From Bacteroidota bacterium (GTDB taxonomy: Bacteria > Bacteroidota > Bacteroidia > Palsa-965), in contig JABDCB010000005.1 in the NCBI GenBank assembly GCA_013288325.1, positions 16,484-80,483 on the forward strand: a stretch of 64,000 nt of DNA, given 5' to 3'. Below the pieces are notes generated by a model. The model did no database searches, was not told the DNA's origin, and saw only the letters and a program-made list of their open reading frames with translations. This document shows positions 6,752-46,932 of the stretch, one piece after another; within the stretch, counting starts at the first letter, position 1; each line of letters opens with the position of its first letter. A program made the position numbers and the translations under genes.

Positions 6752-6756
6752 GTGAA

Positions 6757-7768: not shown

Positions 7769-7789
7769 CCCTTCAGAAAAAGACGAAAT

Positions 7790-10543: not shown

Positions 10544-10622
10544 GAAATACTTCATAGGGTTTAAAGATTTCCTTCTGGAGAGTAAATTGCAAATCTTATT
10601 GAAAATCTAAATAAGAAAATAA

Positions 10623-11885: not shown

Positions 11886-11940
11886 GCATACATAGGAACT
11901 AGCTATTATTTGACCTAAGGTATACTATTAATAAAAAGCG

Positions 11941-12420: not shown

Positions 12421-12436
12421 TTCGTACACCTGGTTC

Positions 12437-14167: not shown

Positions 14168-14207
14168 GTCGGGCCTGTTTTATTACATTTATTCATAAAT
14201 TAGCCTT

Positions 14208-16183: not shown

Positions 16184-16217
16184 AACGAATTCGGTTTGGG
16201 GAGTCGTAAAATGAGTT

Positions 16218-19600: not shown

Positions 19601-19718
19601 CAGGTATCTTTGATGAAGTAAGCACAAGATCAATGCCATTACTTAATACAGGCGAGATAATTAATCAGGTTCTAACATCCGGTAAAGGAGAAAAGAACAA
19701 AACAGGTATTCTTCAGGC

Positions 19719-23695: not shown

Positions 23696-25216
23696 TTATA
23701 CGAGAATATTTCCATCCATTTCTGCCGGTATAGGCAACCCAAGAATATGAAGAATAGTTGGGGCCAAATCTCCCAACTTACCATCCTTTATACTTCTATA
23801 GCCTTTGTCAATTAGAATGCAAGGAACCGGGTTCATACTATGCGCAGTATTAGGAGTCCCATCGGGATTAATCATATAATCTGCATTGCCATGGTCGGCA
23901 ATTATTATAAAAGAATATCCAGCCATTATGCCGGCTTCTACAATCTGTTTAAGACATCCATCCACACATTCCAGAGCTTTTACAACAGCTGGATAAACTC
24001 CTGTATGTCCTACCATATCCGCATTGGCAAAATTCAGACAGATAAAATCGGTCTTCCCTTCATTCAGCTTTGGAAGAATTGCATCCGTAATAAGTTTTGC
24101 GCTCATCTCCGGCTGTAAATCATAAGTGGCTACTTTGGGTGAAGGGATCAGGATTCGCTCTTCACCGGGAAATGTTTCCTCCCTGCCACCATTGAAAAAG
24201 AAGGTAACATGAGGATATTTCTCTGTTTCTGCTATCCGTATTTGTTTGCATCCGTTTTCTGAAAGGACTTCCCCAAGCGTATGGTGCAGGTTATCTTTCT
24301 CGTACAACACTTTAATCCCTTTAAAGCGTTCATCGTATGGGGTCATCGTTATGTAATGGAGAGGAATGGTTTTCATGCCCAATTCAGGCATATCCGTCTG
24401 CGTTAAAACCTGAGTTATTTCCCGACAACGATCGGTCCTGAAATTAAAACAAATCACTACATCCCCTTCCTGAATCGTAGTGAGCGCATTTCCTTCCTTA
24501 TCCGTAATGACTGACGCTTTTATAAATTCGTCGCTTATCTGTTGTGTATAAGAAGCTGCTATTGCCTCTGTTACGGTATTAAAACGAGTACCTTTCCCGT
24601 GTACCAATAAGTCGTAGGCCATCTTAACCCGTTCCCAGCGTTTATCTCTGTCCATAGCATAATACCTCCCTATGACTGAGGCAATCCGGGCCGAGAGAGG
24701 TCTGATATGTTGTTCCAGCTTCTCCAAAAAACCTTTTCCACTATGTGGATCAGTATCTCGTCCATCTGTAAAGGCATGTATAAACACATTTTTTATTCCT
24801 TGGGCGTTGGCTATATCACATAGCTTATGCAAATGTTCCTGAGAAGCATGAACCCCTCCATCGGAAACAAGACCCATTAAGTGGACTTGTTTCTGTTGCA
24901 GTTTCGCATAAGCTAAAGCTTCCAGTAACACAGGGTTCATATCCAGTTTTCCCTGTTTTACGTCTTTGTTGATTCGTACAAGATCTTGGTATACAACTCT
25001 TCCGGCACCAATATTCATATGGCCCACTTCACTGTTTCCCATTTGTCCGTCAGGTAATCCAACCTGTTCACCAAACGTTCTGAGTTTGGAGTGCGGATAA
25101 GTACTCATCAGGCTTTTGAAAAACGGAATGTTTGATGAGGCCATTGCATCCGAACGGGAGCCATCTCCCAGGCCCCAGCCGTCAAGGATGAGTAATGCCA
25201 GTTTTTTATTGTTCAT
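23696..25216 (-). CDS. gpmI: 2,3-bisphosphoglycerate-independent phosphoglycerate mutase
   Basis: 506 aa with 'LLILDGWG', 'MGNSEVGHMNIGAGR' and 'ADHGNA'. Confidence 0.95.
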   Translation of the reverse strand: MNNKKLALLILDGWGLGDGSRSDAMASSNIPFFKSLMSTYPHSKLRTFGEQVGLPDGQMGNSEVGHMNIGAGRVVYQDLVRINKDVKQGKLDMNPVLLEALAYAKLQQKQVHLMGLVSDGGVHASQEHLHKLCDIANAQGIKNVFIHAFTDGRDTDPHSGKGFLEKLEQHIRPLSARIASVIGRYYAMDRDKRWERVKMAYDLLVHGKGTRFNTVTEAIAASYTQQISDEFIKASVITDKEGNALTTIQEGDVVICFNFRTDRCREITQVLTQTDMPELGMKTIPLHYITMTPYDERFKGIKVLYEKDNLHHTLGEVLSENGCKQIRIAETEKYPHVTFFFNGGREETFPGEERILIPSPKVATYDLQPEMSAKLITDAILPKLNEGKTDFICLNFANADMVGHTGVYPAVVKALECVDGCLKQIVEAGIMAGYSFIIIADHGNADYMINPDGTPNTAHSMNPVPCILIDKGYRSIKDGKLGDLAPTILHILGLPIPAEMDGNILV

Positions 25217-26202
25217 GAGGTAGCAGGTAAAACAAATTCAAAGATACTTCCTTTGGGTATATTATTTTTAACGGTAAGTGTCCCTCCGTGCATCACGGAA
25301 AGGTATTTGGCAATATAAAGTCCGAGTCCGGTACCTTGTGTGCTTCTTGTTTCTTCATTACCGGCACGATAAAATTTATTAAATATTAATGCCTTGTCTT
25401 TTTCACTAATCCCGATTCCCTCATCTGCAACTGAAAGTTTTATGCCCCCCGATGTTTGCTTCAGACACACTTTAACAGGTGTTCCCGGAGGAGAATATTT
25501 CAATGCGTTTTCGCAAAGGTTAAGAACAATGGAAGGGAAATTGAATCGATCTATTTCTGCTATCACCCCAGGCTGGATATCGAGTTGTAATATTCTTTGA
25601 CCATGCCCCTGGGTTTGAAACTTATTTGTCAGACTTTGTAACAGCTCACTTAAGTTTGTTTGTTCCCTGTGAATACGAAACGAGCTGTCATCAATTCGGG
25701 CTGCAAGCAGAATGTTTTCTACAAGTGCATTCAAACGGTCTATATCAATCATCGCCCCTTGAATAATTTCTTTTTGTTTCGCTTTTTCAAGGTCACGGAC
25801 TGCAAGCGTTTCCATTTGAAGCCGGGCTGAAGCTAGTGGCGATCGTAATTCATGGGTAATACTGAGAATAAAATTATTCTGCTGCCGGTTAAGGGCATTT
25901 TCTTTGTTAAAAGAGGAACGTGTAATGAGAATTCCTGAAATCAACAATACAAAGAAAACGGAGCCTTCTCCTGTTATCATAACCCACCGGGTATGAAGTT
26001 TTTTTTCCAGGTCATTGCCCAGAGCAATTGTTTCCTGCAGCCCGGATGATTTTGCCACATTCAGCTCCGTTTTGAGATGGTAAATCTCTGCATTTAGTGA
26101 AAACAGCAGATAAGACCACCAACAGAACTGGAAAACAACATACACTACCAAAATATAAAAGCCAAGTAAGGGCCGGCGCTTTTTACCGGAAAAGATTGAC
26201 AT
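25213..26202 (-). CDS. sensor histidine kinase (two N-terminal TM helices, HisKA, HATPase_c)
   Basis: H-box 'ITHELRSPL', N-box 'LCENALKYS', G1 'DEGIGI' and G2 'GTGLGL'. The stop overlaps the gpmI start (ATGA). Confidence 0.9.
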   Translation of the reverse strand: MSIFSGKKRRPLLGFYILVVYVVFQFCWWSYLLFSLNAEIYHLKTELNVAKSSGLQETIALGNDLEKKLHTRWVMITGEGSVFFVLLISGILITRSSFNKENALNRQQNNFILSITHELRSPLASARLQMETLAVRDLEKAKQKEIIQGAMIDIDRLNALVENILLAARIDDSSFRIHREQTNLSELLQSLTNKFQTQGHGQRILQLDIQPGVIAEIDRFNFPSIVLNLCENALKYSPPGTPVKVCLKQTSGGIKLSVADEGIGISEKDKALIFNKFYRAGNEETRSTQGTGLGLYIAKYLSVMHGGTLTVKNNIPKGSIFEFVLPATS

Positions 26203-26820: not shown

Positions 26821-28434
26821 ATGAAAAAATTCATTACCTTTTTTGTGTCTTTGTCAGCCGTTTTTAGCCTTGGAAAAGGAGCTTGTAATGCCCAGTCATC
26901 GGTTCCAACGCCGGTTAGTCCTTTATATGCCGCTGATATTACAGTAGAGTCTAATAATTTAGCCAACCAACGTAACGTAAAAATAGCTGCCGCCTCCAAT
27001 GGATGGCTTTTTGCAGCTTATCTGGTAAATGATTCAGTTTCCGGAAAAGGCGGTGTTGTGGTACGCTATTCCAAAAACGGAGGTATCAACTGGATGCCTT
27101 TCAATAATTATCCTTATTTCAGGCATTCTGAATACAAAGCATGTGATATCACGGTATCAGGTGCTGATACAAATCACCTGAATGTATTTGTTGGAGATGT
27201 TCGCATGGATCTGACAACCAAAAAATACGAAGTAGAAGTACAACGTTATATCAAAAATACAGCGTATCCATCGACAGAAGTATTCTTTCAGCAATTGGAT
27301 ACTAATCAGGTATATGATATAGCCCTGGCAAATAATTACCGTCAGATAACCAGCAAAGACTCCCTGTATAATGTGGGACTTATCTATTCCCATCGGGGAA
27401 TAGGAAAGGACTCGATTGTATTTGCAACGACAGAAAAGAAGCTGGCTAATAAATTCGGAAAGCCTGTTGTAATTGCCAATGCACCTCATTACCGCAAAGT
27501 GTCGCTGGCATATATGCATAGCAGTAGTATCCACGGCGCTTATTGTGCTGCATGGGAATTGCTTGATACTACATACAGCACCGTTGGTCATATCCAGTTT
27601 TCAAGAACAATAAGAAATCTTGATTCTGCCTGGAATAAACCAGTTTACCTGGATTCTCTTCTTTCGGCGACAACGGATAAAGTACGTAGCCCAAGTATTT
27701 CCTGCCAGTATAATGCTGCCGATAACGACAGTGCCAGTGCCAGCATTGCAGTATCGTATGATTATTACAATGGAAGCAATTTTGATATAATCGGAAGCTA
27801 CAACATGAGAGGTGATTCCACTAATTTCTGGAATTCATTTGTTATCGATAGCACGGGTCATAATGAAATACAGAGCAAACTGAGTTATGACCCTTTTGCC
27901 AATAATTTTGTGACCACTTTTTATGATTCCACATCAGGTGCATTACAGTATATGAGTCAGTCGGCTAATTTTACTACTCCCCGTACCTGGACCGTAAACA
28001 ATACCCAATACAACAACAATACGGCCAATCTGAAAGCGCCATGGCCGCAAGTGGTTATGAATCCATCTAACAACAAAGCATTCTTTGCATGGGTCATGGA
28101 TCCTTCCAACAATAATGGGGTGGTACTATGCGATGGAGAATATCTGTTTACCGGGATTTCAGAGCAAAGCATGAGCGGCTTTGATGTTTTAACCCCATAT
28201 CCTAATCCGGCCAATAGCGGGGCTTACCTGCCTGTTTCCAGTGATATTCCGGTAGTGCTTACCATTTCATTATACAATGCGATGGGGCAACTTATGAATA
28301 CAAGTACCGAACACATCGGTGGGGGCATTCAGTTGCTGGAACTAAATACGTCTACTTATGCTGCCGGTGTTTATTTCTGTCATATTGCAACAGCAGAAAA
28401 AACAATAACCCGTCGTTTGGTGGTTGAACACTAA
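26821..28434 (+). CDS. secreted protein with T9SS type A C-terminal sorting domain
   Basis: Signal peptide, a BNR-like 'YSKNGGINW', and a C-terminal domain of about 80 aa ('TPYPNPANSGAYL...GVYFCHI...RRLVVEH'). Confidence 0.75.
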   Translation: MKKFITFFVSLSAVFSLGKGACNAQSSVPTPVSPLYAADITVESNNLANQRNVKIAAASNGWLFAAYLVNDSVSGKGGVVVRYSKNGGINWMPFNNYPYFRHSEYKACDITVSGADTNHLNVFVGDVRMDLTTKKYEVEVQRYIKNTAYPSTEVFFQQLDTNQVYDIALANNYRQITSKDSLYNVGLIYSHRGIGKDSIVFATTEKKLANKFGKPVVIANAPHYRKVSLAYMHSSSIHGAYCAAWELLDTTYSTVGHIQFSRTIRNLDSAWNKPVYLDSLLSATTDKVRSPSISCQYNAADNDSASASIAVSYDYYNGSNFDIIGSYNMRGDSTNFWNSFVIDSTGHNEIQSKLSYDPFANNFVTTFYDSTSGALQYMSQSANFTTPRTWTVNNTQYNNNTANLKAPWPQVVMNPSNNKAFFAWVMDPSNNNGVVLCDGEYLFTGISEQSMSGFDVLTPYPNPANSGAYLPVSSDIPVVLTISLYNAMGQLMNTSTEHIGGGIQLLELNTSTYAAGVYFCHIATAEKTITRRLVVEH

Positions 28435-28456: not shown

Positions 28457-28492
28457 AAAACCGGGGTGATTCACTTCCGGTTTTGTTTTTTT
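28457..28492 (+). terminator. intrinsic terminator
   Basis: aaaaccgg (28457-28464) pairs with ccggtttt (28477-28484) around a 12-nt loop. A T-rich tail follows. Confidence 0.7.
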
Positions 28493-28534
28493 AGAGAAAC
28501 GTTCATTTCATTCCTCATTCTTAATAAAATCAAG

Positions 28535-29479
28535 ATGGCTACCCATTGTATTGTTATCCACGGAGGTGCAGGAACGATCCTTCGCAGTAGTATGAATCCG
28601 GAAATGGAAGCAGCCTATCGGAGCGGGCTTAAAGCTGCTCTCGAAAAGGCAGATGAGCTACTCCATAAAGGGGGAAGTGCACTTGATGCCGTTGAATTGG
28701 CTGTGTCTGTCATGGAAGATAATCCCTTGTTTAATGCAGGGAAAGGCAGTGTATTTACACACGATGGAAAAAATGAAATGGATGCATCCATTATGTGTGG
28801 TAATACACTCAAGGCAGGAGCAGCGTCTGGTTTGATGCATATAAAAAACCCTGTTCGTCTGGCCCGTGAAATCATGGACCATTCAGAGCATGTCTTCTTA
28901 TGTGGCAAAGGAGCAGAAGAATTTGCTCAAAGCCGACAGATGCAAATGGAGCCCGAAAGTTATTTTTATACCAAACAGCGCTATGATCAGTTGCTGGAAA
29001 TACGTGATACCGGGAAAACTCAAATGGACCATTCGGCTCCTGCTGAAAAACCTTCGGAGAAAAAGTTTGGTACAGTTGGAGCTGTAGCGCTTGATACGTA
29101 TGGTAATCTGGCAGCGGCAACTTCTACCGGCGGAATGACGAATAAGCGCTTTGGAAGGGTTGGAGATACCCCCATCATCGGAGCCGGCACTTATGCCAAT
29201 AATAATAGTTGTGCAGTATCCTGTACAGGCCATGGAGAGCTTTTTATACGTGCGGTTGTAGGGCACGATGTGGCTTGTATGGTAGAATATGGAAAACGGT
29301 CGTTACATGAAGCCTGTGATGAAGTAGTAAATAAAAAGCTGGTCAAGTTGGGAGGAGAAGGAGGATTGATAGCCATAGACCGGCAGGGAAATGCCGAAAT
29401 GATTTTTAATTCCGAAGGGATGTACCGGGGCATTAAAAAGGCAGACGGGGATTTCCAGATTGCTATTTACCGGGACTGA
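28535..29479 (+). CDS. iaaA: isoaspartyl peptidase / L-asparaginase (Ntn hydrolase)
   Basis: 'IVIHGGAG' and the autoprocessing site 'GTVGAVALD'. Start set at the ATG at 28535, after the terminator. Confidence 0.9.
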   Translation: MATHCIVIHGGAGTILRSSMNPEMEAAYRSGLKAALEKADELLHKGGSALDAVELAVSVMEDNPLFNAGKGSVFTHDGKNEMDASIMCGNTLKAGAASGLMHIKNPVRLAREIMDHSEHVFLCGKGAEEFAQSRQMQMEPESYFYTKQRYDQLLEIRDTGKTQMDHSAPAEKPSEKKFGTVGAVALDTYGNLAAATSTGGMTNKRFGRVGDTPIIGAGTYANNNSCAVSCTGHGELFIRAVVGHDVACMVEYGKRSLHEACDEVVNKKLVKLGGEGGLIAIDRQGNAEMIFNSEGMYRGIKKADGDFQIAIYRD

Positions 29480-29488
29480 AATGATAGA

Positions 29489-30364
29489 TTACTTGATCGG
29501 GTGCTCTTGCGGAGCAATTGCATAAAATTTACGCTCCTGCAAATGATAAAAATTCCCTTTTGCCATTACATGAACCACCATATTTTCAATAGAGATAGGA
29601 GCGCCTTCGGGTAAATCGGCAATATTGGAATAACGGATATTATGTCCGTCAAAAATAAGGATAAGTCCCGATCCGATAGCCTCCATACGATCTCCATCGG
29701 TAATCAGCACTCCCGTATCTTCTCCGAGACCAATACCTATACATCCCGGATTGCTTGCCACGGCTTGTGCTAAACGGCCGAACCGCCCTCTGGTAACGAA
29801 GTGGGAATCGATAATAACATCTTTAATAAAAGCAAGCCCGGTCGTAATCTTTACCTCCCCTTTTTGCAAAGCACCGGTACTGCTACCTTGGTATATCATT
29901 GTATTCGACATAGCCATTGCTCCGGCACTGGTACCTGCAATGACAAAATTTTCGTGCATATAACGTTCTGTGAGCACTTTCAGGAATTCAGTACCTCCGA
30001 AAATCATGCTGAGGCGAAGCTGGTTGCCGCCTGTAAACATCACTCCGTCGGCTTTGCGTATCCTTTCGGTATATTCCGGAAGCAGCACATCATTCCGATT
30101 TTTGATATGAATCACTCCTACCTTATTGCATCCCAGTTTGCCGAATGCCTGAATATAATTTTCACCTACTTCTTCCGGTATTACGGAAGCGGTTGTGATC
30201 ACTTCCACCAATGAATCCGGGCCTTTCATTTCGGAAAGGATACGTTTCAGTATTCCAAATTCAAAGAAATTCAAATCGACTTTCTGTGTAAAGTTTGGCT
30301 CTATGCCAGTACCTTTATCTTCACTCCCCCCGATAGAAATCAGCTTTCCTTTAGGAATACTCAT
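29489..30364 (-). CDS. cphB: cyanophycinase (S51 peptidase), no signal peptide
   Basis: 291 aa with 'ISIGGSEDKG', 'FTGGNQLRL' and 'AGTSAGA' (nucleophile Ser). Confidence 0.88.
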   Translation of the reverse strand: MSIPKGKLISIGGSEDKGTGIEPNFTQKVDLNFFEFGILKRILSEMKGPDSLVEVITTASVIPEEVGENYIQAFGKLGCNKVGVIHIKNRNDVLLPEYTERIRKADGVMFTGGNQLRLSMIFGGTEFLKVLTERYMHENFVIAGTSAGAMAMSNTMIYQGSSTGALQKGEVKITTGLAFIKDVIIDSHFVTRGRFGRLAQAVASNPGCIGIGLGEDTGVLITDGDRMEAIGSGLILIFDGHNIRYSNIADLPEGAPISIENMVVHVMAKGNFYHLQERKFYAIAPQEHPIK

Positions 30365-30502: not shown

Positions 30503-33175
30503 ATGAAGATAATTGAAATCCGTGCTATGCGCGGCCCGAACTACTGGTCGATATGGAGACATAAACTGATCGTGATGAAGCTGGATATAGGCGGTTATGA
30601 AGAACGGCCTACCGACAAAATAGACGGATTTTCTGAGCGTTTGGAAAAGATGTTCCCAAGCATGTACGAACACCGCTGTTCGGAAAATTGCCTCGGGGGA
30701 TTTTTCTCCCGGGTAAAGGAAGGTACCTGGATAGGACATGTTATTGAACATATAGCCCTGGAAATACAAACTCTGGCAGGAATGGATACTGGTTTTGGCC
30801 GTACCCGATCAACCGGAGAAAGGGGGGTATACCACGTCGTATTTTCCTATATGGAAGAAAAAGTCGGCATTTTTGCTGCCCGATCGGCCGTTAAAATTGC
30901 ACAAGCATTGGTAGATGGCCATCCTTATAACCTGGAAGAGGATATTCAAACTATGCGTGAAATACGGGAGGAAGAACGTTTGGGTCCTAGTACCGGATCA
31001 ATTGTTCAGGAAGCGATGAACAGGGGGATTCCATATATACGGTTAAACCGTCATTCCCTGGTGATGCTGGGGTATGGTGTAAACCAGAAACGGATTCAGG
31101 CTACTGTCTGCAGCAGCACCAGTAATATTGCCGTTGATCTGGCCTGTGATAAAGAAGAAACCAAATCCATGCTGGAAGCAGCATCTATCCCCATCCCCAA
31201 AGGCATTATTACGAGTATAGAAGAAGATGTGGAAGGGGCCGTGAAGAAGCTTGGATTTCCACTCGTGATAAAACCGGTAAATGGAAATCATGGAAGAGGA
31301 GCTACCATCAATATCAAAACGCTGGAGCAGGCCATAGAAGGATTTCAGGTGGCTAAGAAAATATCCAGAACGGTCATCATAGAAAAATTTGTGACCGGTT
31401 TCGACTATCGTTTGCTGGTAATCAATTACAAATTGGTAGCCGCTGCCAAACGAACACCCGCGGCGGTAACGGGTGATGGAAAATTAACGATAGGTGAGCT
31501 GGTAGAGAAAGTGAACAGCGACCCGCGCAGAGGCTATGGTCATGAAAAAGAGCTTACCAGTATCAAGATTGATGAGATGACCTTAAATATCCTCCGCGAT
31601 AATGGGCTTACCATTGATTCCATACTTGGAAAAGACGAAGTGCTGCATCTTAAAGCTACCGCTAATCTGAGCACCGGAGGAACAGCCACCGATGTAACAG
31701 ATATGGTGCATCCGTATAATGTGTTCATGGCCGAACGCATTGCCCGTATTATAGGTCTGGATATCTGTGGTATTGATATTATGGCTCCTGATCTTACCAA
31801 TCCGATTAACGAAAATGGGGGTGCTGTACTGGAAGTAAATGCAGGTCCCGGGTTCCGTATGCATATAGCTCCCACAGAAGGGTTACCGCGCAATGTAGCC
31901 GAACCGGTGATAGATATGCTTTATCCTCCGGGAAGCCCTGTTAAGATTCCGATTATTGCGGTTACAGGTACCAATGGAAAAACCACTACCACCCGTTTGG
32001 TTGCACATATCATGAAAACAGTGGGATATAAAGTGGGTTTCACCACTACGGATGGAATTTATATTCAGAATCGGATGATGGAACAAGGTGATTGTACAGG
32101 GCCGGTAAGTGCCGAGTTTGTACTCAAAGACCCAACGGTTGATTTTGCCGTGCTTGAATGTGCCCGAGGAGGTATTCTGCGTGCAGGCCTGGGTTTCCAT
32201 AATTGTGATATCGGAATTGTTACCAATGTTGCAGAGGATCACCTGGGTTTAAAAGATATCCATACCCTGGAAGATCTGGCACGGGTAAAGGCCGTGGTAC
32301 CCGAAAGTGTATTGCCGGAAGGGTATGCCATCCTGAATGCAGATGATGACCTGGTATATGCTATGGCCAGAGGACTGGATTGCAAGGTGGCTTACTTCAG
32401 TATGGATGAAAACAACCCCCGGATCAAAAAGCATTGCCGTAACGGAGGCATTGCTGCTGTGGTAGAAGATGGTTATATAAGTATTTGCAAAGGCACCTGG
32501 AAAATAAGGATAGAAAAAGTGGTGAACATACCTCTTACTTTTTCCGGCAAAGCCATTTTTATGATCCAGAATATATTGCCGGCGGTATTATCAGGATTTC
32601 TGAGTAATGTAAAAACGGAAGATATTCGTCTGGCATTGGAAACATTTATTCCTTCGCCGACACAAACTCCCGGCCGAATGAATCTGTTCCAGTTCAAGAA
32701 ATTCCAGGTAATGGTGGATTATGCACACAATACTGCTGGATTCCAGGCTCTGGCCAAGTTCCTTGAAAAAACAGATGCGAAACCTAAAGTGGGCATTATT
32801 GCCGGAGTCGGCGACAGAAGGGATGAAGACATCGTTAGTCTTGGTACCCTGGCGGCACAAATGTTTGACGAGATTATTATTCGTCAGGATAAAAACCTGA
32901 GAAACCGTACCGGGGATGAAATCATACGCCTGATTGTAAAAGGGATAGAAACAGAAAATGCAGCCATCCCATATAAAATTATTCCTTCAGAGGCAGAAGC
33001 CATACAATATGCCATCAAACATGCCAAGAAAGGTTCTTTTATAACTATTTGCAGTGATGTGGTTCCGGATGCGCTGAATGCCATAATGAAATATAAGGAA
33101 GAGGATGCGGAATTCGAAATGCTGATAGAAGATATTCCCAATCAGCACGGAACAATACCGTCGCTCGGAAAATAA
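30503..33175 (+). CDS. cphA: cyanophycin synthetase
   Basis: 890 aa. 'MKIIEIRAMRGPNYWS' N-domain, an ATP-grasp domain, and a Mur-ligase-like domain containing 'GTNGKTTT'. Confidence 0.95.
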   Translation: MKIIEIRAMRGPNYWSIWRHKLIVMKLDIGGYEERPTDKIDGFSERLEKMFPSMYEHRCSENCLGGFFSRVKEGTWIGHVIEHIALEIQTLAGMDTGFGRTRSTGERGVYHVVFSYMEEKVGIFAARSAVKIAQALVDGHPYNLEEDIQTMREIREEERLGPSTGSIVQEAMNRGIPYIRLNRHSLVMLGYGVNQKRIQATVCSSTSNIAVDLACDKEETKSMLEAASIPIPKGIITSIEEDVEGAVKKLGFPLVIKPVNGNHGRGATINIKTLEQAIEGFQVAKKISRTVIIEKFVTGFDYRLLVINYKLVAAAKRTPAAVTGDGKLTIGELVEKVNSDPRRGYGHEKELTSIKIDEMTLNILRDNGLTIDSILGKDEVLHLKATANLSTGGTATDVTDMVHPYNVFMAERIARIIGLDICGIDIMAPDLTNPINENGGAVLEVNAGPGFRMHIAPTEGLPRNVAEPVIDMLYPPGSPVKIPIIAVTGTNGKTTTTRLVAHIMKTVGYKVGFTTTDGIYIQNRMMEQGDCTGPVSAEFVLKDPTVDFAVLECARGGILRAGLGFHNCDIGIVTNVAEDHLGLKDIHTLEDLARVKAVVPESVLPEGYAILNADDDLVYAMARGLDCKVAYFSMDENNPRIKKHCRNGGIAAVVEDGYISICKGTWKIRIEKVVNIPLTFSGKAIFMIQNILPAVLSGFLSNVKTEDIRLALETFIPSPTQTPGRMNLFQFKKFQVMVDYAHNTAGFQALAKFLEKTDAKPKVGIIAGVGDRRDEDIVSLGTLAAQMFDEIIIRQDKNLRNRTGDEIIRLIVKGIETENAAIPYKIIPSEAEAIQYAIKHAKKGSFITICSDVVPDALNAIMKYKEEDAEFEMLIEDIPNQHGTIPSLGK

Positions 33176-33262
33176 TCGGCAGAAACAAATGACATATAAT
33201 CGCACGGGCATTTAAACCTCCTTGTATATAGAATAGCCGATTAATTTTTCCTTTCAGAACTA

Positions 33263-33272
33263 CCCCCCCCCC
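33263..33272. repeat. homopolymeric C10 tract
   Basis: Ten consecutive C residues counted directly. Intergenic position. Confidence 0.95.
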
Positions 33273-33286
33273 TTTAATATTAACTA

Positions 33287-33324
33287 CTTCCATAACCCCG
33301 CGCTTAAGCGCGGGGTTATGGAAG
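33287..33324. terminator. perfect 38-bp GC-rich palindrome (likely cphA terminator or protein-binding site)
   Basis: cttccataaccccgcgc, then ttaa, then gcgcggggttatggaag: 17-bp arms with no mismatch. Confidence 0.6.
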
Positions 33325-33335
33325 CCAACCTGAAA

Positions 33336-33351
33336 TTGGGCTTTAGCCCAA
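33336..33351. repeat. second short hairpin
   Basis: ttgggct, then tt, then agcccaa. Confidence 0.5.
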
Positions 33352-33491
33352 AGATTTGCAGCTAACAACCTTGTAGTTTTAAAACAAGCTATATTAATCG
33401 TTCAAATATAACGCTATATGGGTTTCTTTTATGTAACATTTTTGTAAGAAACACGTAAAACAAGCGATTGAGATTTGGGAATTTAATAATG

Positions 33492-33499
33492 TAATTTTG
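33492..33499 (+). promoter_or_regulatory. -7 box (TAnnTTTG) for the LytTR regulator
   Basis: TAATTTTG lies 18 nt upstream of the TTG start at 33517. Confidence 0.45.
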
Positions 33500-33516
33500 A
33501 AACAAAACAGGGTCAA

Positions 33517-34212
33517 TTGAATGCAATATTGGTTGATGATGACGAGTTCTCGTCTCTGGCAACGGCTCATTTAATAGAGCATGTAAATTATATCAATCTG
33601 CTTAAAACCTGCAGTGGTCCCATGGAGGCTGCAGAAGCATTGATGAATGAGGAGATAGACCTTCTTTTTCTGGATGTAGAAATGCCGGAAATGAATGGGA
33701 TGGAGCTTATTAAAAGCCTTTCCGCGCCTCCTCTTATTATTTTAACCACTTCACATGCCCGCTATGCCCAGGAAGCGTATGACTATGATGTGGTGGACTA
33801 TCTTTTAAAACCTATTGAGCTGCATCGCTTTATAAAGGCAGCAGCCAAGGCAAAGGAGCGGTATGATCATCGTCAGGAGGAGCAAGGTGAATTTACGGAA
33901 GACTATATCTTCGTCCGCAAAAATGCTGTTCTGAGTAAATTGGTTATCAAGGATATTCTCTGGATCGAAGCCCTGGGCGATTATGTTACCATTAATACCT
34001 TTGATAAGAAATATACCCTTCACCTTACTCTTAAATCCCTGGAACGCAAATTGCCCCCAGAGCGTTTTGTCAGAGTTCATCGCTCCTTTATCGTTCAGAT
34101 TGAGCATATTAATACCATCGATGATTCTGTTATCTCCATTAACAATAAACCAATCCCGGTAGGAGCCTTGTACCGGGAAAGCTTTCTGAAAAGGCTTAAT
34201 GTATTAAGCTGA
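33517..34212 (+). CDS. LytTR-family response regulator (REC plus LytTR DNA-binding domain)
   Basis: 'ILVDDDEF', 'LLFLDVEMPEMNG', 'DYLLKPI' and a C-terminal LytTR domain ('FVRVHRSFIV'). A TTG start is required because an in-frame stop lies at 33487. Confidence 0.88.
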   Translation: MNAILVDDDEFSSLATAHLIEHVNYINLLKTCSGPMEAAEALMNEEIDLLFLDVEMPEMNGMELIKSLSAPPLIILTTSHARYAQEAYDYDVVDYLLKPIELHRFIKAAAKAKERYDHRQEEQGEFTEDYIFVRKNAVLSKLVIKDILWIEALGDYVTINTFDKKYTLHLTLKSLERKLPPERFVRVHRSFIVQIEHINTIDDSVISINNKPIPVGALYRESFLKRLNVLS

Positions 34213-34355
34213 TTAGCGTATTTCTGTACCACCCCCTCCTGTATTCCGGCTCAATTCTGACGCCCCTTCACCGCTTATTCTGTCTTATTCACCGAAAAAG
34301 AGAAAGTCTTGCAGATCTTGTCCGTTATACTCCTTAAGGATCAGCAACTACTAAC

Positions 34356-34865
34356 ATGACGGTGAAAAAGCAGCCATCCAGGCAGAATCTGATATTTATT
34401 GTGGAGGATAATGAGCTGTATTCCTTTATGTTGGAGTATATGCTATCAGAAGTCCACATGGTACGATGCCTTAGGTTTGAAAAGGGAGAAGAATGTATCC
34501 GCAACCTCGCGCTTGAACCCGATATGATTATTCTGGATTATGTCCTGCCGGGAATTGATGGTCTGGATACATTCCGGAAAATAAAGCAGGCAAAACCGGA
34601 AGTGCCGGTAGTAGTACTGACCGGCAATTTTGACTCGCATGCAGCTCAGCATTTTATGGAAGAGGGTGTATATGATTATATGCTGAAGGAAGAAAGTGCA
34701 GCCGGTAGAATCAAATCGCTGGTGGAATTTGTGATGGGAAAGAAAAATAAAGAAGAAGAAATTAAAGAAGAACAGGAAGGACGACAACGGATTGTTCGAA
34801 TAAGTCTACTGGTGTTTTTCGTTTTTGCACTTGCAATTAGCATTACGTGGCTTATAATTGGATGA
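34356..34865 (+). CDS. receiver-domain protein with acidic linker and C-terminal TM anchor
   Basis: REC motifs 'IFIVEDNE', 'IILDYVLPGIDG', 'VVVLTG' and 'DYMLKEE'. Then 'KNKEEEIKEEQEGRQR' and the terminal hydrophobic 'ISLLVFFVFALAISITWLIIG'. Confidence 0.85.
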   Translation: MTVKKQPSRQNLIFIVEDNELYSFMLEYMLSEVHMVRCLRFEKGEECIRNLALEPDMIILDYVLPGIDGLDTFRKIKQAKPEVPVVVLTGNFDSHAAQHFMEEGVYDYMLKEESAAGRIKSLVEFVMGKKNKEEEIKEEQEGRQRIVRISLLVFFVFALAISITWLIIG

Positions 34866-34896
34866 AACAGGATGAGACATTTTAACGCTATCTGTC

Positions 34897-35403
34897 ATGA
34901 AACAGAACGAGGATGTGACACGGGTGTTCATCGTAGACGACGACCCCGTTTTCAGCAAGGCATTGGAAACCTACCTGAAAAAAGAAGTGCCAAACGTGGA
35001 GGTAGCCAGTTTCTCCAATGGAGAGTCTTCCTTGCATGAACTACACCGTTCGCCGGACCTGCTGTTGCTGGACTACCGTCTCGACTCCGAATTTGCATAT
35101 GCCTGGGATGGGCTTCAAATATTAAAAAAGATTAATAATATCGACCCCGGATTAAGTGTAGTGGTGATGTCGGCAAAGGAAAGTGTGGATACGGCTATGA
35201 ATTGTATCAAGATGGGGGCCATGGAATATGTGGTAAAAAACGAACAGGCATTTCCAAAAATAAAAGGAATTGTTTCCGAATTAAAACAAGAGATAAAAGA
35301 GGAAAAAGAGGAGGAAGAACTGGAAGAGAAAAGTAACATGCCTGCCTGGTTAGGACTTCTGTTGCTGCTGATACTTCTTATCTTTTTTCTTTATCGTTTA
35401 TAA
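34897..35403 (+). CDS. receiver-domain protein with acidic linker and C-terminal TM anchor (second copy of this architecture)
   Basis: REC motifs 'VFIVDDDP', 'LLLLDYRL', 'VVVMSAKE' and 'EYVVKNE'. Then 'KQEIKEEKEEEELEEK' and the terminal 'AWLGLLLLLILLIFFLYRL'. Confidence 0.85.
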   Translation: MKQNEDVTRVFIVDDDPVFSKALETYLKKEVPNVEVASFSNGESSLHELHRSPDLLLLDYRLDSEFAYAWDGLQILKKINNIDPGLSVVVMSAKESVDTAMNCIKMGAMEYVVKNEQAFPKIKGIVSELKQEIKEEKEEEELEEKSNMPAWLGLLLLLILLIFFLYRL

Positions 35404-35464
35404 GATGTATGGCATAGCAGGCAATGCAATTTTTGGTATGAATATATTCAAAGGAGAACGGCCT

Positions 35465-35824
35465 ATGAAAATCTTAATAGTAGATGATGATCCGCTTACT
35501 CTGGAAGCCATCCGGTGTTGTCTGGTTGCAGGAGGTAATGAAGTGATTGCTGCCAGCAGCGGGTTTGATGCCATCGGTATAGCGAAAAACGAACACCCGG
35601 ATCTGATTATCAGTGATATTATGATGCCTGAAATGTCGGGACTCAGTTTACTGTGTTTATTAAAACAAGTATACTTCAGCCGGATACCGGTGATTATTAT
35701 TTCATCGCTTGATAAGGCCGATGTTATTCTTTCTTCGCTTGGATTAGGGGCCGATGATTTTATAAGTAAGCCTATTGATTTTGACCGGCTTTCATCACGA
35801 GTAAAGAGTTACTACCTGGATTAA
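35465..35824 (+). CDS. single-domain (CheY-like) response regulator
   Basis: 'MKILIVDDDPLT', 'DLIISDIMMPEMSG', 'IIISS' and 'DFISKPI'. The ATG at 35465 is preferred over 35405. Confidence 0.88.
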   Translation: MKILIVDDDPLTLEAIRCCLVAGGNEVIAASSGFDAIGIAKNEHPDLIISDIMMPEMSGLSLLCLLKQVYFSRIPVIIISSLDKADVILSSLGLGADDFISKPIDFDRLSSRVKSYYLD

Positions 35825-35896
35825 ATAACCTTTCCATGCTTTTTTCAGATCGCGATGATCGGAAAGGCGGGAAGAGAAACCTGAAACCAAAAAATA

Positions 35897-36271
35897 ATGG
35901 AAACGCAAAAAATAATTGATCTGAGCTATCTGCGCCAGTTGGCCAATGGAAGTGACGAGTTTATGCAAACGATGATCAGCATTTTTATTGCTGAAACACC
36001 TGCCGCGTTAGATAATATGGAGAAAAGCTGGGAACGTAACGACTGGTCCGGCATCAAGGCTATGGCTCACAAAATGAAACCTTCTTTCGGGTTTATGGGT
36101 ATAGCGAGCATGAAGGATGTGATTACAGAATTGGAAGCAGATGCAGAACGGGGAGCGTATCCGGAAGTAATAAGAGAAAAAATAACCCGTATAAAAGCAG
36201 CCTGCACGGCTGCAATAGTGGAGCTCAGAACAGAGCTGAAAAAGTATCAGAAATCCGCTTCCCGTATTTGA
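35897..36271 (+). CDS. Hpt (histidine phosphotransfer) domain protein
   Basis: 124 aa, four-helix-bundle-like, with the phosphorylatable His in 'AHKMKPSFGFMG'. Confidence 0.85.
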   Translation: METQKIIDLSYLRQLANGSDEFMQTMISIFIAETPAALDNMEKSWERNDWSGIKAMAHKMKPSFGFMGIASMKDVITELEADAERGAYPEVIREKITRIKAACTAAIVELRTELKKYQKSASRI

Positions 36272-36278
36272 AAAGGGA

Positions 36279-38480
36279 TTAGTTCCCTACTTCAGAAATA
36301 AACTTGATACGCATGAGACGGATCTCCTCTTCGGTATAATCGTTTTCGCCCAACTCTTTTAGTGCATCGGCAACAGAATCACTGTCCGATTCACGGAAAT
36401 AGTCATATACTTCTTCCTGTTTCTCTTCATCCAGCACCTGATCAATATAATAGCTGATATTGACACGTGTACCGGAGGCAACAATGGTTTCTATCTCACC
36501 CAGCAAATCTGTCAGGGAAAGTCCCTTGGCACTGGCTACATCTTCCAGACTCAGCTTACGGTCAATACTTTGTATGATATGTACTTTCAGCCCCGATTTG
36601 TTCACCACTGATTTTACCACCATATCCATGGGCCGCTCAATTTCATTTTCGGTCACATAGGTGGCAATAAGTTCTACAAACGGTTTGCCGAATTTGGCTG
36701 CTTTACCTGGACCTACCCCTGTAATATGGGTCAGCTCTTCCATGGTGGTTGGATACTGAATAGCCATTTCTTCCAGCGATACTTCGGAAAAGATAACATA
36801 GGGAGGCAGGTTTTTGGCCTTTGCTGTTTTCTTTACCAGATCTTTCAGCATGCTGAAAAGCAACTCATCCGAACCGGCGCCTTTATGTCCGGGTCCGGCT
36901 ATATCCTCATCATCTGCGTCGGTACCTTCATAATCATGATCCTTGGTGATCATAATGGAATGAGGGTTTTTCAGAAAATCTTTTCCTTCCTTGGTCAGTT
37001 TCAGCAAGCCGTAACTCTCAATATCTTTGGAGAGGAATCCGTTTATGATGGCGTGACGAACTACTGCGTTCCAGAATTTTTCATTCTTATCATCCTCCAC
37101 ACCTTTTCCGAACTGATCCAGTTCATTGTGTTTGTATGCTTTGGCGGTTGCGGTAAGAGTTCCCAGCAGCACATTAATCACATCCCGTGCTTTGAATTTT
37201 TCCTTCATTTCAAGGATTGTCTCCAGCACCAGTTCTATCTCGTCTTGTCCTTCAAACTTGGTTTTAGGCTGCATACAATTGTCGCAGCTGCCACAATTGT
37301 CCTGTGTATATCCTTCTCCGAAATAGTGTAACAGTACTTTCCGGCGGCAAACCGATGTTTCGGCATAAGCTACTGTTTCCAGCAGCAGTTGTTTGCCTAT
37401 TTCCTGTTCGGCAACAGGTTTGCCTTTCATAAACTTTTCCAGCTTCTGAATATCGTCATAGGAATAAAAGGTCAGACAATGACCTTCACCTCCGTCACGT
37501 CCCGAACGTCCTGTTTCCTGGTAATAGCCTTCCAGCGATTTTGGAATATCATGGTGTATCACAAAACGGACATCCGGTTTGTCGATACCCATTCCAAAAG
37601 CGATTGTGGCTACAATTACATCAATATCTTCCATCAGGAACTGATCCTGAGTCTGGGCACGGGTGGTAGCATCCAAACCGGCATGATAAGGCTTGGCCTT
37701 TATTCCGTTAACTTGCAGGGTTTCAGCTAGTTCCTCTACCTTCTTACGGCTCAGACAATAAATAATGCCTGATTTTCCGGTGTTTTTCTTTACAAATTTG
37801 ATGATCTCCTTGGCCACATTGACCTTGGGTCTTACCTCATAATACAGGTTGCCCCGGTTAAAGGAAGATTTATAGATATCAGCTGTCTGCATCCCCAGAT
37901 TTTTGAGGATATCCTGCTGAACCTTAGGAGTTGCGGTAGCGGTAAGGGCAATGATGGGCACTTTGCCAATCTCTTCAAAAATAGAACGCAGGCGTCGGTA
38001 TTCGGGGCGGAAATCATGACCCCATTCAGAAATACAATGGGCCTCATCAATGGCGAAAAAGGAGATATTGATATCCCTCAGAAAGGTGACATTCTCTTCT
38101 TTCGTAAGGCTTTCGGGGGCTACATATAAAAGCTTGGTCTTTCCATCGGCTATATCCTTCTTTACTTTCAGAATTTCAGCCTTGCTAAGCGATGAATTCA
38201 GGAAATGGGCAACACTATCTTCCGATCCGAAGTTACGGATGGCATCCACCTGATTCTTCATCAGGGCAATAAGCGGTGATACAATAATACCCGTTCCTTC
38301 ACTGATAAGGGCGGGCAACTGATAACAAAGCGATTTGCCCCCACCGGTAGGCATGATTACAAACGTATCCCTTCCCTCCAGAACACTGGTAATAATCTCT
38401 TCCTGCTCGCCTTTAAATTTATTGAAACCGAAATATTTCTGAAGTGCTTCGGGAAGGGCTACTGATTCTAATTCTAGCAT
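36279..38480 (-). CDS. recQ: ATP-dependent DNA helicase RecQ
   Basis: 'FKGEQEEII', 'MPTGGGKSLCYQ', 'DEAHCISEWGHDFRP', a Zn-binding Cys cluster, and a C-terminal HRDC domain. Start set at M33 ('MLELES'). Confidence 0.95.
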   Translation of the reverse strand: MLELESVALPEALQKYFGFNKFKGEQEEIITSVLEGRDTFVIMPTGGGKSLCYQLPALISEGTGIIVSPLIALMKNQVDAIRNFGSEDSVAHFLNSSLSKAEILKVKKDIADGKTKLLYVAPESLTKEENVTFLRDINISFFAIDEAHCISEWGHDFRPEYRRLRSIFEEIGKVPIIALTATATPKVQQDILKNLGMQTADIYKSSFNRGNLYYEVRPKVNVAKEIIKFVKKNTGKSGIIYCLSRKKVEELAETLQVNGIKAKPYHAGLDATTRAQTQDQFLMEDIDVIVATIAFGMGIDKPDVRFVIHHDIPKSLEGYYQETGRSGRDGGEGHCLTFYSYDDIQKLEKFMKGKPVAEQEIGKQLLLETVAYAETSVCRRKVLLHYFGEGYTQDNCGSCDNCMQPKTKFEGQDEIELVLETILEMKEKFKARDVINVLLGTLTATAKAYKHNELDQFGKGVEDDKNEKFWNAVVRHAIINGFLSKDIESYGLLKLTKEGKDFLKNPHSIMITKDHDYEGTDADDEDIAGPGHKGAGSDELLFSMLKDLVKKTAKAKNLPPYVIFSEVSLEEMAIQYPTTMEELTHITGVGPGKAAKFGKPFVELIATYVTENEIERPMDMVVKSVVNKSGLKVHIIQSIDRKLSLEDVASAKGLSLTDLLGEIETIVASGTRVNISYYIDQVLDEEKQEEVYDYFRESDSDSVADALKELGENDYTEEEIRLMRIKFISEVGN

Positions 38481-38618
38481 CGGGTTGGTCTGTATTTCCG
38501 TATTATGGGATGAAAAATGCGATATTTCTTTATTTTTGCTTCGCTTAGGTAAAGATATAATAAAAATTCCTTTCAAAAGCTAATTTTATATCGCTCAATT
38601 AAAAAAAACCACCAAGGC

Positions 38619-45492: not shown

Positions 45493-46932
45493 TTACAATC
45501 CCGTATTTTCATAAAGAACCAAATACACCTCCCCCTCCCTAAACTCTTTGACCAGCTTCCATTTCGTTTTTATTTCTTCTATCTGAGGCAGCAAATCCGT
45601 ATTACAAACATTGGAGTGGAGGTAGTAATGAAATTTACTGACGGGTCCATCGAGTGCGTTGGTATAATGACAGTTGAAATCGAAATAGGCGATTATATCC
45701 GGAGTAGAACCTGGGCTCAGATAAGTTTCGGCAGGAGAATAGATCAAAGGGAATTGTGTTCCGATATTATAAGGAGACAGCTGTTTGTCTCGCAAGCTAT
45801 GCGTATAGATATATTCCCTCATTTGTTGTTCCAGGCTAAAGAAGGGTAATACTTTCAAACTGGTATCCCATTCATTACTGAGTCGTTCGGGATAGATCCA
45901 GAAATTGCCACTTACTAAAACGATAGCGATTAGCAATACAGAGATTCTCTGATAAGTAGTTTTCCATTGTTGTATCAGATAACAAACTGGCAGGATAAGT
46001 AATGCAAATACCGGCATGAAATACCGTGCACCGATGGGGTTGGAAAGGGGGATGAGCAATAGGGAGAAAAAGAAAAGAGGAGGCAGGAGCAGGCGCAGGA
46101 GGCGGTAAAAAACGGGATCCTTGGAACCGGCTTTTCGGAAATAGACAATGGCTGCAGCCAGAAAAAGCCAGAGGATGATTCGTCCGGAATCAGCCAGTTT
46201 CCAGAGTACAAGCATGACATGTTTTAGCATGATGGTTATGCTCACGCCATGTTCATCCGTTTTTTCTCTCCACGGGGAAAAGAAATACCAGCCTGTAACA
46301 GCGTGATGATACAGAAACCACACTGCGCTAAAGACAAATACAGGCAGCCAGGCAAACACTTTGTTTTTATTCCATCGTTCGGAAGGAGAGGCGAACAGGA
46401 AATCCATAATCAGCAAGGAAGCTGCTGCCGGCAATCCGCGCATATTGCAAAAGACCAGCAGGATAAGAAAGATGGAGAACAACAGCCGTTTGTTTTCCAA
46501 CAAGGCCATCAATGCCAGCAGAAAAAATGCCAGGAGCATCAGATCCGGTGCTGCCAATATACTTTGGGTAATGAAACAAGGCTCGAGAAATAATAACAAC
46601 AGGGCAACCGAAAGCATGGTATTGTTCAAAAACCGCCGGCCTATGCGATAAAAAGCAAATACACTGCCCAGCAAAAAAGGAAGCAAGGCGAGATGGACAG
46701 ACAAAAGACCGGTGCCGCATAACCGGAAAAAAAGAGATAGCCAGGCAGCATAAAAAGGAAAGCCTCCTGTATCCAATGATTCGGGAATATGAAAAGGGGT
46801 AAACTCCTTTCCGCCTTTTAATACCGGCAGGGCATAATACACACTATCCCAGAAAAGCGGAATGCCTGAAGCGACAAGAGTAAGCAGGAGACAGATCAGA
46901 AAAGCAAGGGCCAACGGAAGATTAAGCTTCAT
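45493..46932 (-). CDS. polytopic membrane protein, ArnT/GT-C-like (function unknown)
   Basis: 479 aa with 10 or more hydrophobic helices and a soluble C-terminal domain of about 130 aa. I found no diagnostic motif. Confidence 0.5.
   Translation of the reverse strand: MKLNLPLALAFLICLLLTLVASGIPLFWDSVYYALPVLKGGKEFTPFHIPESLDTGGFPFYAAWLSLFFRLCGTGLLSVHLALLPFLLGSVFAFYRIGRRFLNNTMLSVALLLLFLEPCFITQSILAAPDLMLLAFFLLALMALLENKRLLFSIFLILLVFCNMRGLPAAASLLIMDFLFASPSERWNKNKVFAWLPVFVFSAVWFLYHHAVTGWYFFSPWREKTDEHGVSITIMLKHVMLVLWKLADSGRIILWLFLAAAIVYFRKAGSKDPVFYRLLRLLLPPLFFFSLLLIPLSNPIGARYFMPVFALLILPVCYLIQQWKTTYQRISVLLIAIVLVSGNFWIYPERLSNEWDTSLKVLPFFSLEQQMREYIYTHSLRDKQLSPYNIGTQFPLIYSPAETYLSPGSTPDIIAYFDFNCHYTNALDGPVSKFHYYLHSNVCNTDLLPQIEEIKTKWKLVKEFREGEVYLVLYENTGL

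Follow-up and report, generated by a model that had tools for sequence, protein, structure and literature searches.

A phosphorelay gene cluster without a kinase in uncultured Bacteroidia and its probable origin from a hybrid-kinase island

Phosphorelays in which the histidine phosphotransfer (Hpt) step is carried out by a separate small protein are known from Vibrio, where LuxN and LuxQ signal via LuxU to LuxO, and from Pseudomonas aeruginosa, where hybrid kinases signal via HptB to HsbR. In relays of this type, a free Hpt protein with one His stands between the receiver domains of the hybrid kinases and the downstream receivers; the kinases can be encoded apart, and receivers share the Hpt. 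A locus with a similar small free Hpt and one conserved His, here known from sequence alone, is found in the 64-kb stretch of DNA analysed in this study (the window; contig JABDCB010000005.1 of the Bacteroidota assembly GCA_013288325.1). It comprises five genes, which are named here LytTR-RR, RECtm1, RECtm2, REC3 and Hpt. The locus differs from the LuxU/HptB-type relays in that its Hpt is the detached domain of a specific kinase lineage with the order REC-PAS-HK-REC-Hpt (HK, histidine kinase), in that the terminal regulator is of the LytTR type and not of the NtrC or anti-anti-sigma type, and in that two of its receivers are tail-anchored. Regarding the components of a multistep phosphorelay, the Hpt with its His and the receiver residues are present at the window locus, while a kinase with HisKA and HATPase_c domains is absent. 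We propose, with a probability of roughly 60%, that the cluster descends from a modular and hitherto undescribed phosphorelay island, widespread in uncultured Bacteroidia from soil, peat and groundwater, and has lost the kinase.

Further described systems help to place the single components. ArcB, BarA and TorS carry HisKA, HATPase, REC and Hpt domains on one chain, and the same HK-REC-Hpt order is found in the kinase of the window's relatives. However, that kinase is cytoplasmic and has an extra N-terminal receiver and PAS, and the window retains only its Hpt part. The regulator has the order of REC and LytTR domains in common with E. coli BtsS/BtsR (YehU/YehT), AgrA, AlgR and YpdB, and its candidate operator, two direct repeats with a phasing of approximately 21 bp, is laid out as is typical for LytTR regulators. 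In contrast to BtsS/BtsR, it has no LytS-type or HPK10-type partner kinase, and its input would come via Hpt from a HisKA hybrid kinase; to our knowledge, no LytTR regulator with such an input has been characterised. Finally, single-domain regulators are known as phosphate sinks or allosteric adaptors, such as Sinorhizobium CheY1, Caulobacter DivK and Bacillus Spo0F. REC3, RECtm1 and RECtm2 likewise have no enzymatic or DNA-binding output and are encoded beside an Hpt, so that roles as sink, shuttle or adaptor are obvious options, but RECtm1 and RECtm2 differ in having a C-terminal membrane anchor into which alpha-5 extends.

The cluster is flanked by cphA for cyanophycin synthetase (30503-33175) and by recQ (36279-38576, minus strand), and contains the following features.

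33517-34212, plus strand: LytTR-RR, receiver plus LytTR DNA-binding domain, 231 aa, TTG start (Pfam).
34267-34298, plus strand: direct repeat TTCACCG-N14-TTCACCGAAAA with half-sites 21 bp apart (five-species spacer alignment, motif counts, weight matrix).
34356-34865, plus strand: RECtm1, receiver with charged helical linker and C-terminal transmembrane (TM) anchor, 169 aa (Pfam, hydropathy, structural model).
34897-35403, plus strand: RECtm2, tail-anchored receiver and paralogue of RECtm1, 168 aa (Pfam, hydropathy).
35465-35824, plus strand: REC3, soluble single-domain receiver, 119 aa (Pfam; the longest open reading frame opens at 35405).
35897-36271, plus strand: Hpt, free-standing phosphotransfer protein, 124 aa, His58 (Pfam).

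A preliminary description of this DNA had reported five consecutive plus-strand genes, and their coordinates coincide exactly with the boundaries of open reading frames (ORFs). For REC3, the true start is probably 35465 and the longer frame from 35405 unused, because AGGAG stands 8 nt upstream, the orthologues (69-81% identical) are 117-120 aa long, and one public gene call agrees. The other structural claims of that description also held: ORFs and Pfam reveal no kinase between cphA and recQ; LytTR is the sole output domain, since genes 2-4 are Response_reg alone in Pfam; the acidic pocket and the Asp, Thr/Ser and Lys positions are intact in all four receivers according to the alignment with CheY; and the canonical phosphorylatable His of Hpt, His58, is shared by all 21 Hpt sequences, free or fused, in the family alignment. 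Pfam was applied to the cluster, where every domain match clearly exceeds the gathering score, and to 30 further large ORFs, and our own kinase profile to all ORFs of the window, three ORFs beyond 59.6 kb being checked with the kinase profile only. Neither the window ORFs scanned with Pfam nor the genes called in related loci contain a family of the CheA, CheW or methyl-accepting chemotaxis protein type. The data support the view that the Hpt, which looks functional, and the four receivers together form a putative His-Asp relay module.

The Hpt protein provides evidence for the origin of the cluster. It matches the Pfam family with 2e-10, and His58 lies within AHKMKPSFGFMG. Over its full length it aligns with residues 829-941 of the hybrid kinase of the related locus L004 (related loci are given L numbers throughout), with 50% identity over 113 aa and E = 5e-38. 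The fused Hpt domains of the kinases from L004/L005, L010 and L011 are 46-50% identical to the window Hpt and have the motifs DL(S/T)YL...NGS.EF...AHKMKPSFGFMGI in common with it. Judged from these alignments, the free Hpt of the window and the Hpt domain at the C-terminus of the relatives' hybrid kinase are orthologous. Its best NCBIfam matches are the Hpt ends of ArcB, TorS and BarA (ArcB with 27.7 bits against a cutoff of 838). NCBIfam gave generic matches for the five cluster proteins, all under the curated cutoffs, hence no named orthologue applies. We also considered REC3 as a remnant of the internal receiver of the lost kinase; this was rejected, as the identity is only 28% and as L004, L010 and L011 encode both REC3 and the kinase.

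Comparison of the interval between cphA and recQ among the relatives shows how variable the gene content of this slot is.

Window and L002: LytTR, RECtm1, RECtm2, REC3 and free Hpt.
L003: RECtm1, RECtm2, REC3 and free Hpt; no LytTR.
L006 and L009: three receivers only; no LytTR, Hpt or kinase.
L004/L005 and L010: LytTR, three receivers and a 943-aa REC-PAS-PAS-HisKA-HATPase-REC-Hpt kinase in the Hpt position.
L097: LytTR, a single receiver and a kinase of 817 aa that lacks Hpt; anchored receivers absent.

The same order, with a hybrid kinase of 939 aa, recurs in L011 in another genomic context. The five-gene order had been put forward as a possible conserved unit, to be checked by a neighbourhood search. 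This search did not bear it out: the exact set exists only in the window species and its close relative L002, whereas L003 lacks LytTR, L006 and L009 lack LytTR and Hpt, and L097 lacks the anchored receivers and Hpt. The cluster is modular, and its kinase-less state is a derived deletion and not a design principle.

The direction of change can be read from phylogenetic trees. Neighbour-joining trees of the RECtm1, RECtm2 and REC3 orthologue groups have the same topology, with orthologous clades. The loci with a free Hpt form one clade with 100% support in the bootstrapped trees of both flanking proteins, namely the window and L003 in the CphA tree and the window, L002 and L003 in the RecQ tree. 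Its neighbours are L097, L010, L004, L011 and the pair L006/L009, and all of them except this reduced pair carry the kinase; the deeper outgroups L019, L026, L028 and L013-L020 all have it as well. Because the free-Hpt clade is thus nested among kinase-bearing lineages (except L006/L009), the parsimonious reading is that the kinase body of approximately 825 codons would have been lost once, at the base of the window clade, with the Hpt being retained. The trees further suggest a later loss of LytTR in L003 as well as independent losses in L006/L009 (kinase, Hpt and LytTR) and in L097 (Hpt and anchored receivers).

The wider family was collected by scanning an alignment of RECtm1 against 185,579 species-representative genomes, which yielded 80 loci. 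Their annotation combined a hydropathy test with profiles of the window proteins and the L004 proteins. True tail-anchored small receivers are found in about half of the 80 loci. Within 10 kb of an anchored receiver (42 non-redundant loci), a kinase occurs in 28, an Hpt in 26 (15 fused, 11 free) and a LytTR gene in 17, compared with LytTR in only 1 of 42 loci without an anchored receiver. The typical island, exemplified by L013-L020, L023, L026 and L028, reads REC-LytTR, small REC, sensor kinase(s), REC-PAS-HK-REC-Hpt and one to four REC-tm genes. The hybrid kinase family is large and strongly conserved, its best 120 clusters being 57-71% identical to the L004 kinase; a fused Hpt is present in 46 of them (median length 934 aa) and absent from 74 (median 812 aa). 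Members of the family are encoded in L004, L010, L011, L013-L020, L023, L026, L028, L097, L099, L103 and L104, and are absent from the window cluster. A free Hpt gene directly downstream of an Hpt-less kinase was found in L015, L016, L018, L099, L104 and one Joint Genome Institute (JGI) contig. Therefore, detachment of the Hpt is common in this family, and the peculiarity of the window is the missing kinase. With the kinase island of the Bacteroidia, the window shares LytTR (69-79% identical), Hpt (50-63%), three receiver orthologues and the repeat. Very large islands exist in L014, L017 and L020 (about 370-14900). Besides the hybrid kinase and LytTR, they encode a kinase of 650 aa, a multi-pass membrane kinase with 4-7 predicted TM segments and, on the opposite strand, a tm-HK-REC protein of 813 aa; the remaining genes are those for a small REC, two REC-tm, a tandem-USP protein and three additional small receivers. 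Probably they represent the full form of the module.

All parts of the cluster are familiar two-component domains, and the chemistry holds no surprise; it is a new variation within ordinary two-component signalling rather than a system of a new kind. The preliminary description did not recognise the gene set as a described system, and we likewise found no publication describing it in open-access full texts, which is not proof of novelty. The same literature contained nothing relevant on LytTR together with Hpt in Bacteroidetes or on cyanophycin together with response regulators.

The LytTR regulator matches Response_reg (PF00072, 6e-18) and LytTR (PF04397, 5.6e-20), the latter over 92 of the 98 profile positions, and the alignment to E. 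coli CheY identifies D7/D8, D53, T78 and K98 as catalytic residues. It is 79% identical to its orthologue in L002 and 69% to that in L004. The best NCBIfam match is BtsR (NF008677, equivalog), but a score of 107.6 bits against a cutoff of 246 rules out that it is a BtsR orthologue. No LytS-type or other kinase gene adjoins it, and no Pfam or profile match to a LytS-type kinase was obtained among the scanned window ORFs. The start codon is TTG in the window (33517), L002 (588), L004 (8935) and L097 (8701), GTG in L010 (264) and ATG in L011 (9126). This conserved weak start codon, non-ATG in five of the six orthologues, suggests that the regulator is held at a low level. Furthermore, TAATTTTG at 33492-33499 (plus strand), 25 nt ahead of the start codon, matches the Bacteroidetes -7 consensus TAnnTTTG and is the sole intergenic -7 match in 33176-36271, but with a motif density of 0.64 per kb across the window it may have arisen by chance. 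It is weak evidence that the LytTR gene would have its own promoter.

The direct repeat, which the preliminary description does not mention, was spotted by aligning the spacer between LytTR and RECtm1 from five species (window sequence cTTCACCGcttattctgtcttaTTCACCGAAAA); approximately 20 loci have it upstream of the first anchored receiver. It begins 55 nt past the LytTR stop codon and ends 59 nt ahead of the RECtm1 start codon. The second half-site, in the form TT[CT]A[CA]CGAAA, occurs 56 times over all loci; in 15 of these cases a first half resembling TTCACCG (5 or more of 7 positions matching) is located at offset -21, compared with 0-3 at each other offset between -33 and -9. Eighteen of the 24 bipartite sites are intergenic, of which 15 precede tail-anchored receiver genes and two precede a small receiver after a LytTR gene. 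A weight matrix detects a single site in the window, with a score of 38 (next best 13, shuffles at most 17.6). It also finds the site in loci outside the training set (L097, L021, L012), and a plain motif search revealed further sites in L103 and L108. The half-sites share a TTyrCC core, with the general form TTyrCC-N15-TTCACCGAAAA, and the repeat core is perfectly conserved. LytTR binding sites generally consist of two 9-11-nt repeats separated by an 11-13-nt spacer (PMC4847170), and the repeat has this layout. The half-site ACCGCTTA is identical to one in the oligonucleotide of the E. coli YehT/BtsR yjiY site (PMC4847170), an identity that we treat as a lead only. The repeat is a candidate operator of the LytTR regulator and a candidate promoter region of a RECtm1-RECtm2-REC3-Hpt operon, which the regulator would probably drive. 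Such an operator-like repeat would therefore imply two transcription units, LytTR alone and RECtm1-RECtm2-REC3-Hpt, together with autoregulation. Repeat-like sites are also located in L025 (5865-6050), L035 (about 5865) and L033 (6031-6066), in a divergent intergenic region ahead of an apparent operon that comprises two tail-anchored receiver genes, a gene for a GH15 glucodextranase-like enzyme and one for an unknown protein of 234 aa. In the group of L025, L033 and L035, a glycoside hydrolase may thus belong to the regulon.

The small receivers match Response_reg with E-values of 2e-20 (RECtm1), 3.5e-20 (RECtm2) and 1e-26 (REC3), and none of them has an output domain. According to the CheY alignment, the conserved residues are E17/D18, D61, T89 and K111 in RECtm1, D14/D15, D59, S92 and K114 in RECtm2, and D7/D8, D51, S80 and K102 in REC3. 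The acidic pocket E-D instead of D-D is invariant across the RECtm1 family. RECtm1 and RECtm2, which are 33% identical to each other, both end in a hydrophobic segment of 17-22 residues (Kyte-Doolittle 2.8). A Glu/Lys-rich linker and basic residues stand ahead of this segment, and only 1-2 residues follow it. In the orthologues the hydrophobicity of the anchor is kept but not its sequence. An AlphaFold2 model of RECtm1 (13 family members, mean pLDDT 87) displays a standard receiver, in which alpha-5, linker and anchor form a single helix (residues 115-168). A Foldseek search of the PDB with this model returned generic receiver domains only, none with a membrane tail. Approximately 12 close relatives of RECtm1 were found among 5.8 billion proteins, all in uncultured Bacteroidia. 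Among the best 150 library representatives, each of which stands for a cluster at 50% identity or more, 29 of the 42 small single-REC proteins have a C-terminal anchor. In open-access full-text literature we found nothing on tail-anchored or transmembrane receivers, and this absence is not proof of novelty. RECtm2 and its orthologues have an insertion of about 5-6 residues, DYRLDSEFAYAWDG, in the loop behind the phospho-acceptor Asp (residues 59-72, 35071-35112), where most receivers read D-x-x-M-P-x-M-D/N-G. The insertion could alter partner choice or phosphate stability.

With the kinase missing from the cluster, its phosphoryl input has to be sought elsewhere. The only kinase found in the window is a 329-aa protein with two TM segments, HisKA and HATPase_c (25213-26202, minus strand), 7.3 kb from the cluster. 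The end of its coding region shares 4 nt with the start of gpmI (23696-25216), and its position is conserved in L003/L008 (76% identical) and L006. It was rejected as the relocated kinase of the cluster, because it is approximately 30% identical to the cluster kinases, whereas these share more than 50% of their catalytic-core residues with one another. A better candidate comes from a sister metagenome-assembled genome (MAG), GCA_044448685.1, whose contig 12 carries the kinase-less L003 cluster. Contig 3 of this MAG encodes P0035, a 939-aa REC-PAS-HisKA-HATPase-REC-Hpt kinase of the family, which directly follows another tail-anchored receiver (171 aa), itself preceded by TTTGCCC-N14-TTCACCGAAAA. 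MFI5148443 and MFI5149351, the protein accessions, are consistent with a single submission. L108 is an orthologous and syntenic second locus, and its kinase P0027 is the closest relative of P0035 (76% identical). It occurs in a JGI soil-metagenome series that also holds the exact RECtm1 sequence of the window. Between the tail-anchored receiver and the hybrid kinase of L108, approximately 2.3 kb (8688-11051) contain no large ORF, compared with 150 bp in the orthologous L103; this gap may be an insertion or a degraded gene. Our best guess, on circumstantial grounds, is that the window organism would likewise encode its hybrid kinase in trans. The preliminary description had suggested such a kinase elsewhere, and this is plausibly right: a hybrid kinase would be the natural phosphodonor of this Hpt lineage, as in relatives it is fused to the Hpt or encoded directly upstream, and P0035 is present in the sister MAG, but no such kinase lies within the 64-kb window.

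These observations can be combined into the following model. Fuller islands comprise sensor kinase(s) and a cytoplasmic REC-PAS-PAS-HisKA-HATPase-REC kinase with the Hpt fused or immediately downstream, and beside these kinases a REC-LytTR factor and between one and four small receivers, of which several have their C-terminal anchor in the inner membrane. The kinase body of approximately 825 codons would have been lost from the cphA-recQ slot in the common ancestor of the window species and its two nearest relatives, and the Hpt would have been left as a separate gene. His58 of Hpt may now be phosphorylated by a hybrid kinase encoded elsewhere, or by another kinase via a single-domain receiver, and the Hpt could reversibly pass the phosphoryl group to the LytTR regulator, RECtm1, RECtm2 and REC3. 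The phosphorylated regulator would bind the repeat at 34267-34298 and control RECtm1-RECtm2-REC3-Hpt, i.e. exert feedback on the components of its own branch. The tail-anchored receivers may drain phosphate at the membrane or signal to membrane partners via the helix of alpha-5, linker and TM segment. The conservative reading is that they act as sinks which tune the flux to the regulator. A bolder and rather unlikely alternative is that they are true outputs, in which phosphorylation would alter the packing or dimerisation of membrane helices through the alpha-5-TM helix. If true, a cytoplasmic PAS hybrid kinase with its Hpt relay could control membrane partners, such as the 2TM/7TM kinases and transporters of the larger islands, which would amount to inside-out two-component signalling with the receiver dose set by the LytTR regulator through the conserved repeat.

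Several points weigh against this account. The trees are neighbour-joining trees only, and those of CphA and RecQ conflict on the placement of L097; with distance-based trees and this conflict, the order of events is therefore less certain than their direction. The piecemeal losses, continuing in L003, L006/L009 and L097, fit a module under relaxed constraint. No family kinase is encoded in the visible 64 kb of the window organism, L108 is tied to it only by the sample series, and P0035 could have been misplaced by MAG binning. Moreover, the repeat is kept in L003, L006 and L009, three loci that lack a LytTR gene within 10 kb; hence either the regulator acts in trans there or a different factor binds. 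The repeat could also be a promoter for an alternative sigma factor.

This last possibility is the first of the rival explanations, according to which the repeat is not a LytTR operator but a promoter for an alternative sigma factor, for example of the extracytoplasmic function type, or the site of another regulator, with the LytTR targets elsewhere. In addition to the loci without LytTR, it can draw on the much better conservation of the promoter-proximal half TTCACCGAAAA than of the distal half, and on the lack of a Bacteroidetes -7 box downstream of the repeat. Nevertheless, we regard it as unlikely, given that TTyrCC-core half-sites exactly 21 bp apart reproduce the published LytTR layout (PMC4847170), that the half-site shared with YehT/BtsR (PMC4847170) points to the very protein which is the regulator's best NCBIfam match, and that a LytTR gene lies immediately upstream in most loci.

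A second explanation would make the relay self-contained, with the 329-aa kinase phosphorylating REC3 or another single-domain receiver, from which the phosphoryl group reaches Hpt and then LytTR, in a relay of four proteins as in the Spo0 or Ypd1 systems. A transfer from a conventional kinase via a free receiver to Hpt is chemically plausible, this kinase is the only one that Pfam and profile detected in the window, no response regulator gene adjoins it, and its position 7 kb from the cluster is kept in L003/L008 and L006. The latter is, however, no more than regional synteny. Six unrelated genes intervene (those for a protein with a type IX secretion tail, isoaspartyl dipeptidase, cphB, cphA and others), the kinase gene is on the opposite strand and overlaps with gpmI, and its low identity to the kinases that accompany these clusters also speaks against this scheme. 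Altogether, we consider it quite improbable.

The flanking genes suggest a third explanation, a dedicated regulator of cyanophycin, i.e. nitrogen-reserve, metabolism. Indeed, cphA is found within 10 kb in 14 of the 42 loci with a tail-anchored receiver and in none of the 42 without, and in three arrangements: in tandem in the window clade, divergent from LytTR in L019/L023/L026/L028, and 6 kb off in L025/L033/L035/L037. However, the loci are phylogenetically related, so the adjacency of cphA may be inherited synteny. The repeat, with its single copy in the 64 kb, is not found upstream of cphA, cphB or the dipeptidase gene, and many family clusters have no cphA nearby (L011, L013-L018, L099, L103, L104), which makes a dedicated function in cyanophycin metabolism very doubtful.

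Regarding the selective constraint, the window Hpt is 62-63% identical to those of L002 and L003, with a non-synonymous divergence (pN) of 0.22-0.23 and a synonymous divergence (pS) of 0.73-0.77. For the five genes among these three loci, pN amounts to 0.13-0.26 and pS to 0.72-0.89; because synonymous sites are saturated, a dN/dS ratio is unusable and both values are given instead. Judged by this comparison, the five cluster genes, Hpt included, are under purifying selection. The weakest alternative, that the cluster is a decaying, non-functional remnant after kinase deletion, could explain the stepwise loss of LytTR, Hpt, kinase or anchored receivers among relatives and the several-fold faster evolution of the signalling genes (60-67% identical, compared with 92-95% for CphA and RecQ), but it is highly improbable in view of five intact ORFs with every catalytic residue conserved, a non-synonymous divergence far below the saturated synonymous one in all five genes, a free-Hpt arrangement that has outlasted at least two speciation events, and the perfectly conserved core of the upstream repeat.

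Some observations concern the surroundings of the cluster. A perfect palindrome with an 18-bp stem, GCTTCCATAACCCCGCGC TTAA GCGCGGGGTTATGGAAGT, is located at 33286-33325, 110 nt past the cphA stop codon. It exists as a single copy in the window, its Rfam matches are at chance level, and it is probably the cphA terminator or an insulator that separates cphA from the relay genes. An Rfam scan of 33000-36500 gave sub-threshold chance matches only, and in the scan for sigma-70 promoters and terminators the sites were no more frequent than in shuffled sequences, the one strong hairpin being this palindrome. The cyanophycin gene set of the window is complete, with isoaspartyl dipeptidase (28466-29479), cyanophycinase (29489-30364, minus strand) and the synthetase (30503-33175). 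Type IX secretion is represented by a PorV-like gene (47093-48181), a 1686-aa Peptidase_C25 protein (48187-53247) and two proteins with a Por_Secre_tail sorting domain (26821-28434 and 56836-59385). Three minus-strand ORFs have no Pfam match at E <= 1e-5, namely 15173-16303 (376 aa), 18932-19639 (235 aa) and 45493-46932 (479 aa).

What does the cluster mean for this family of uncultured Bacteroidia? The cluster without a kinase can be traced to a concrete source, namely a defined hybrid-kinase lineage of which only the Hpt domain was left, and the neighbouring species with other partial losses provide a natural series for the disassembly and rewiring of a phosphorelay. The sharply conserved 21-bp-phased repeat would connect the LytTR regulator to the receiver/Hpt operon of these uncultured organisms, a connection that can be tested directly. 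Furthermore, the C-terminally anchored receivers are a real family, and if they signal to membrane partners, they would represent an extra output mode for response regulators.

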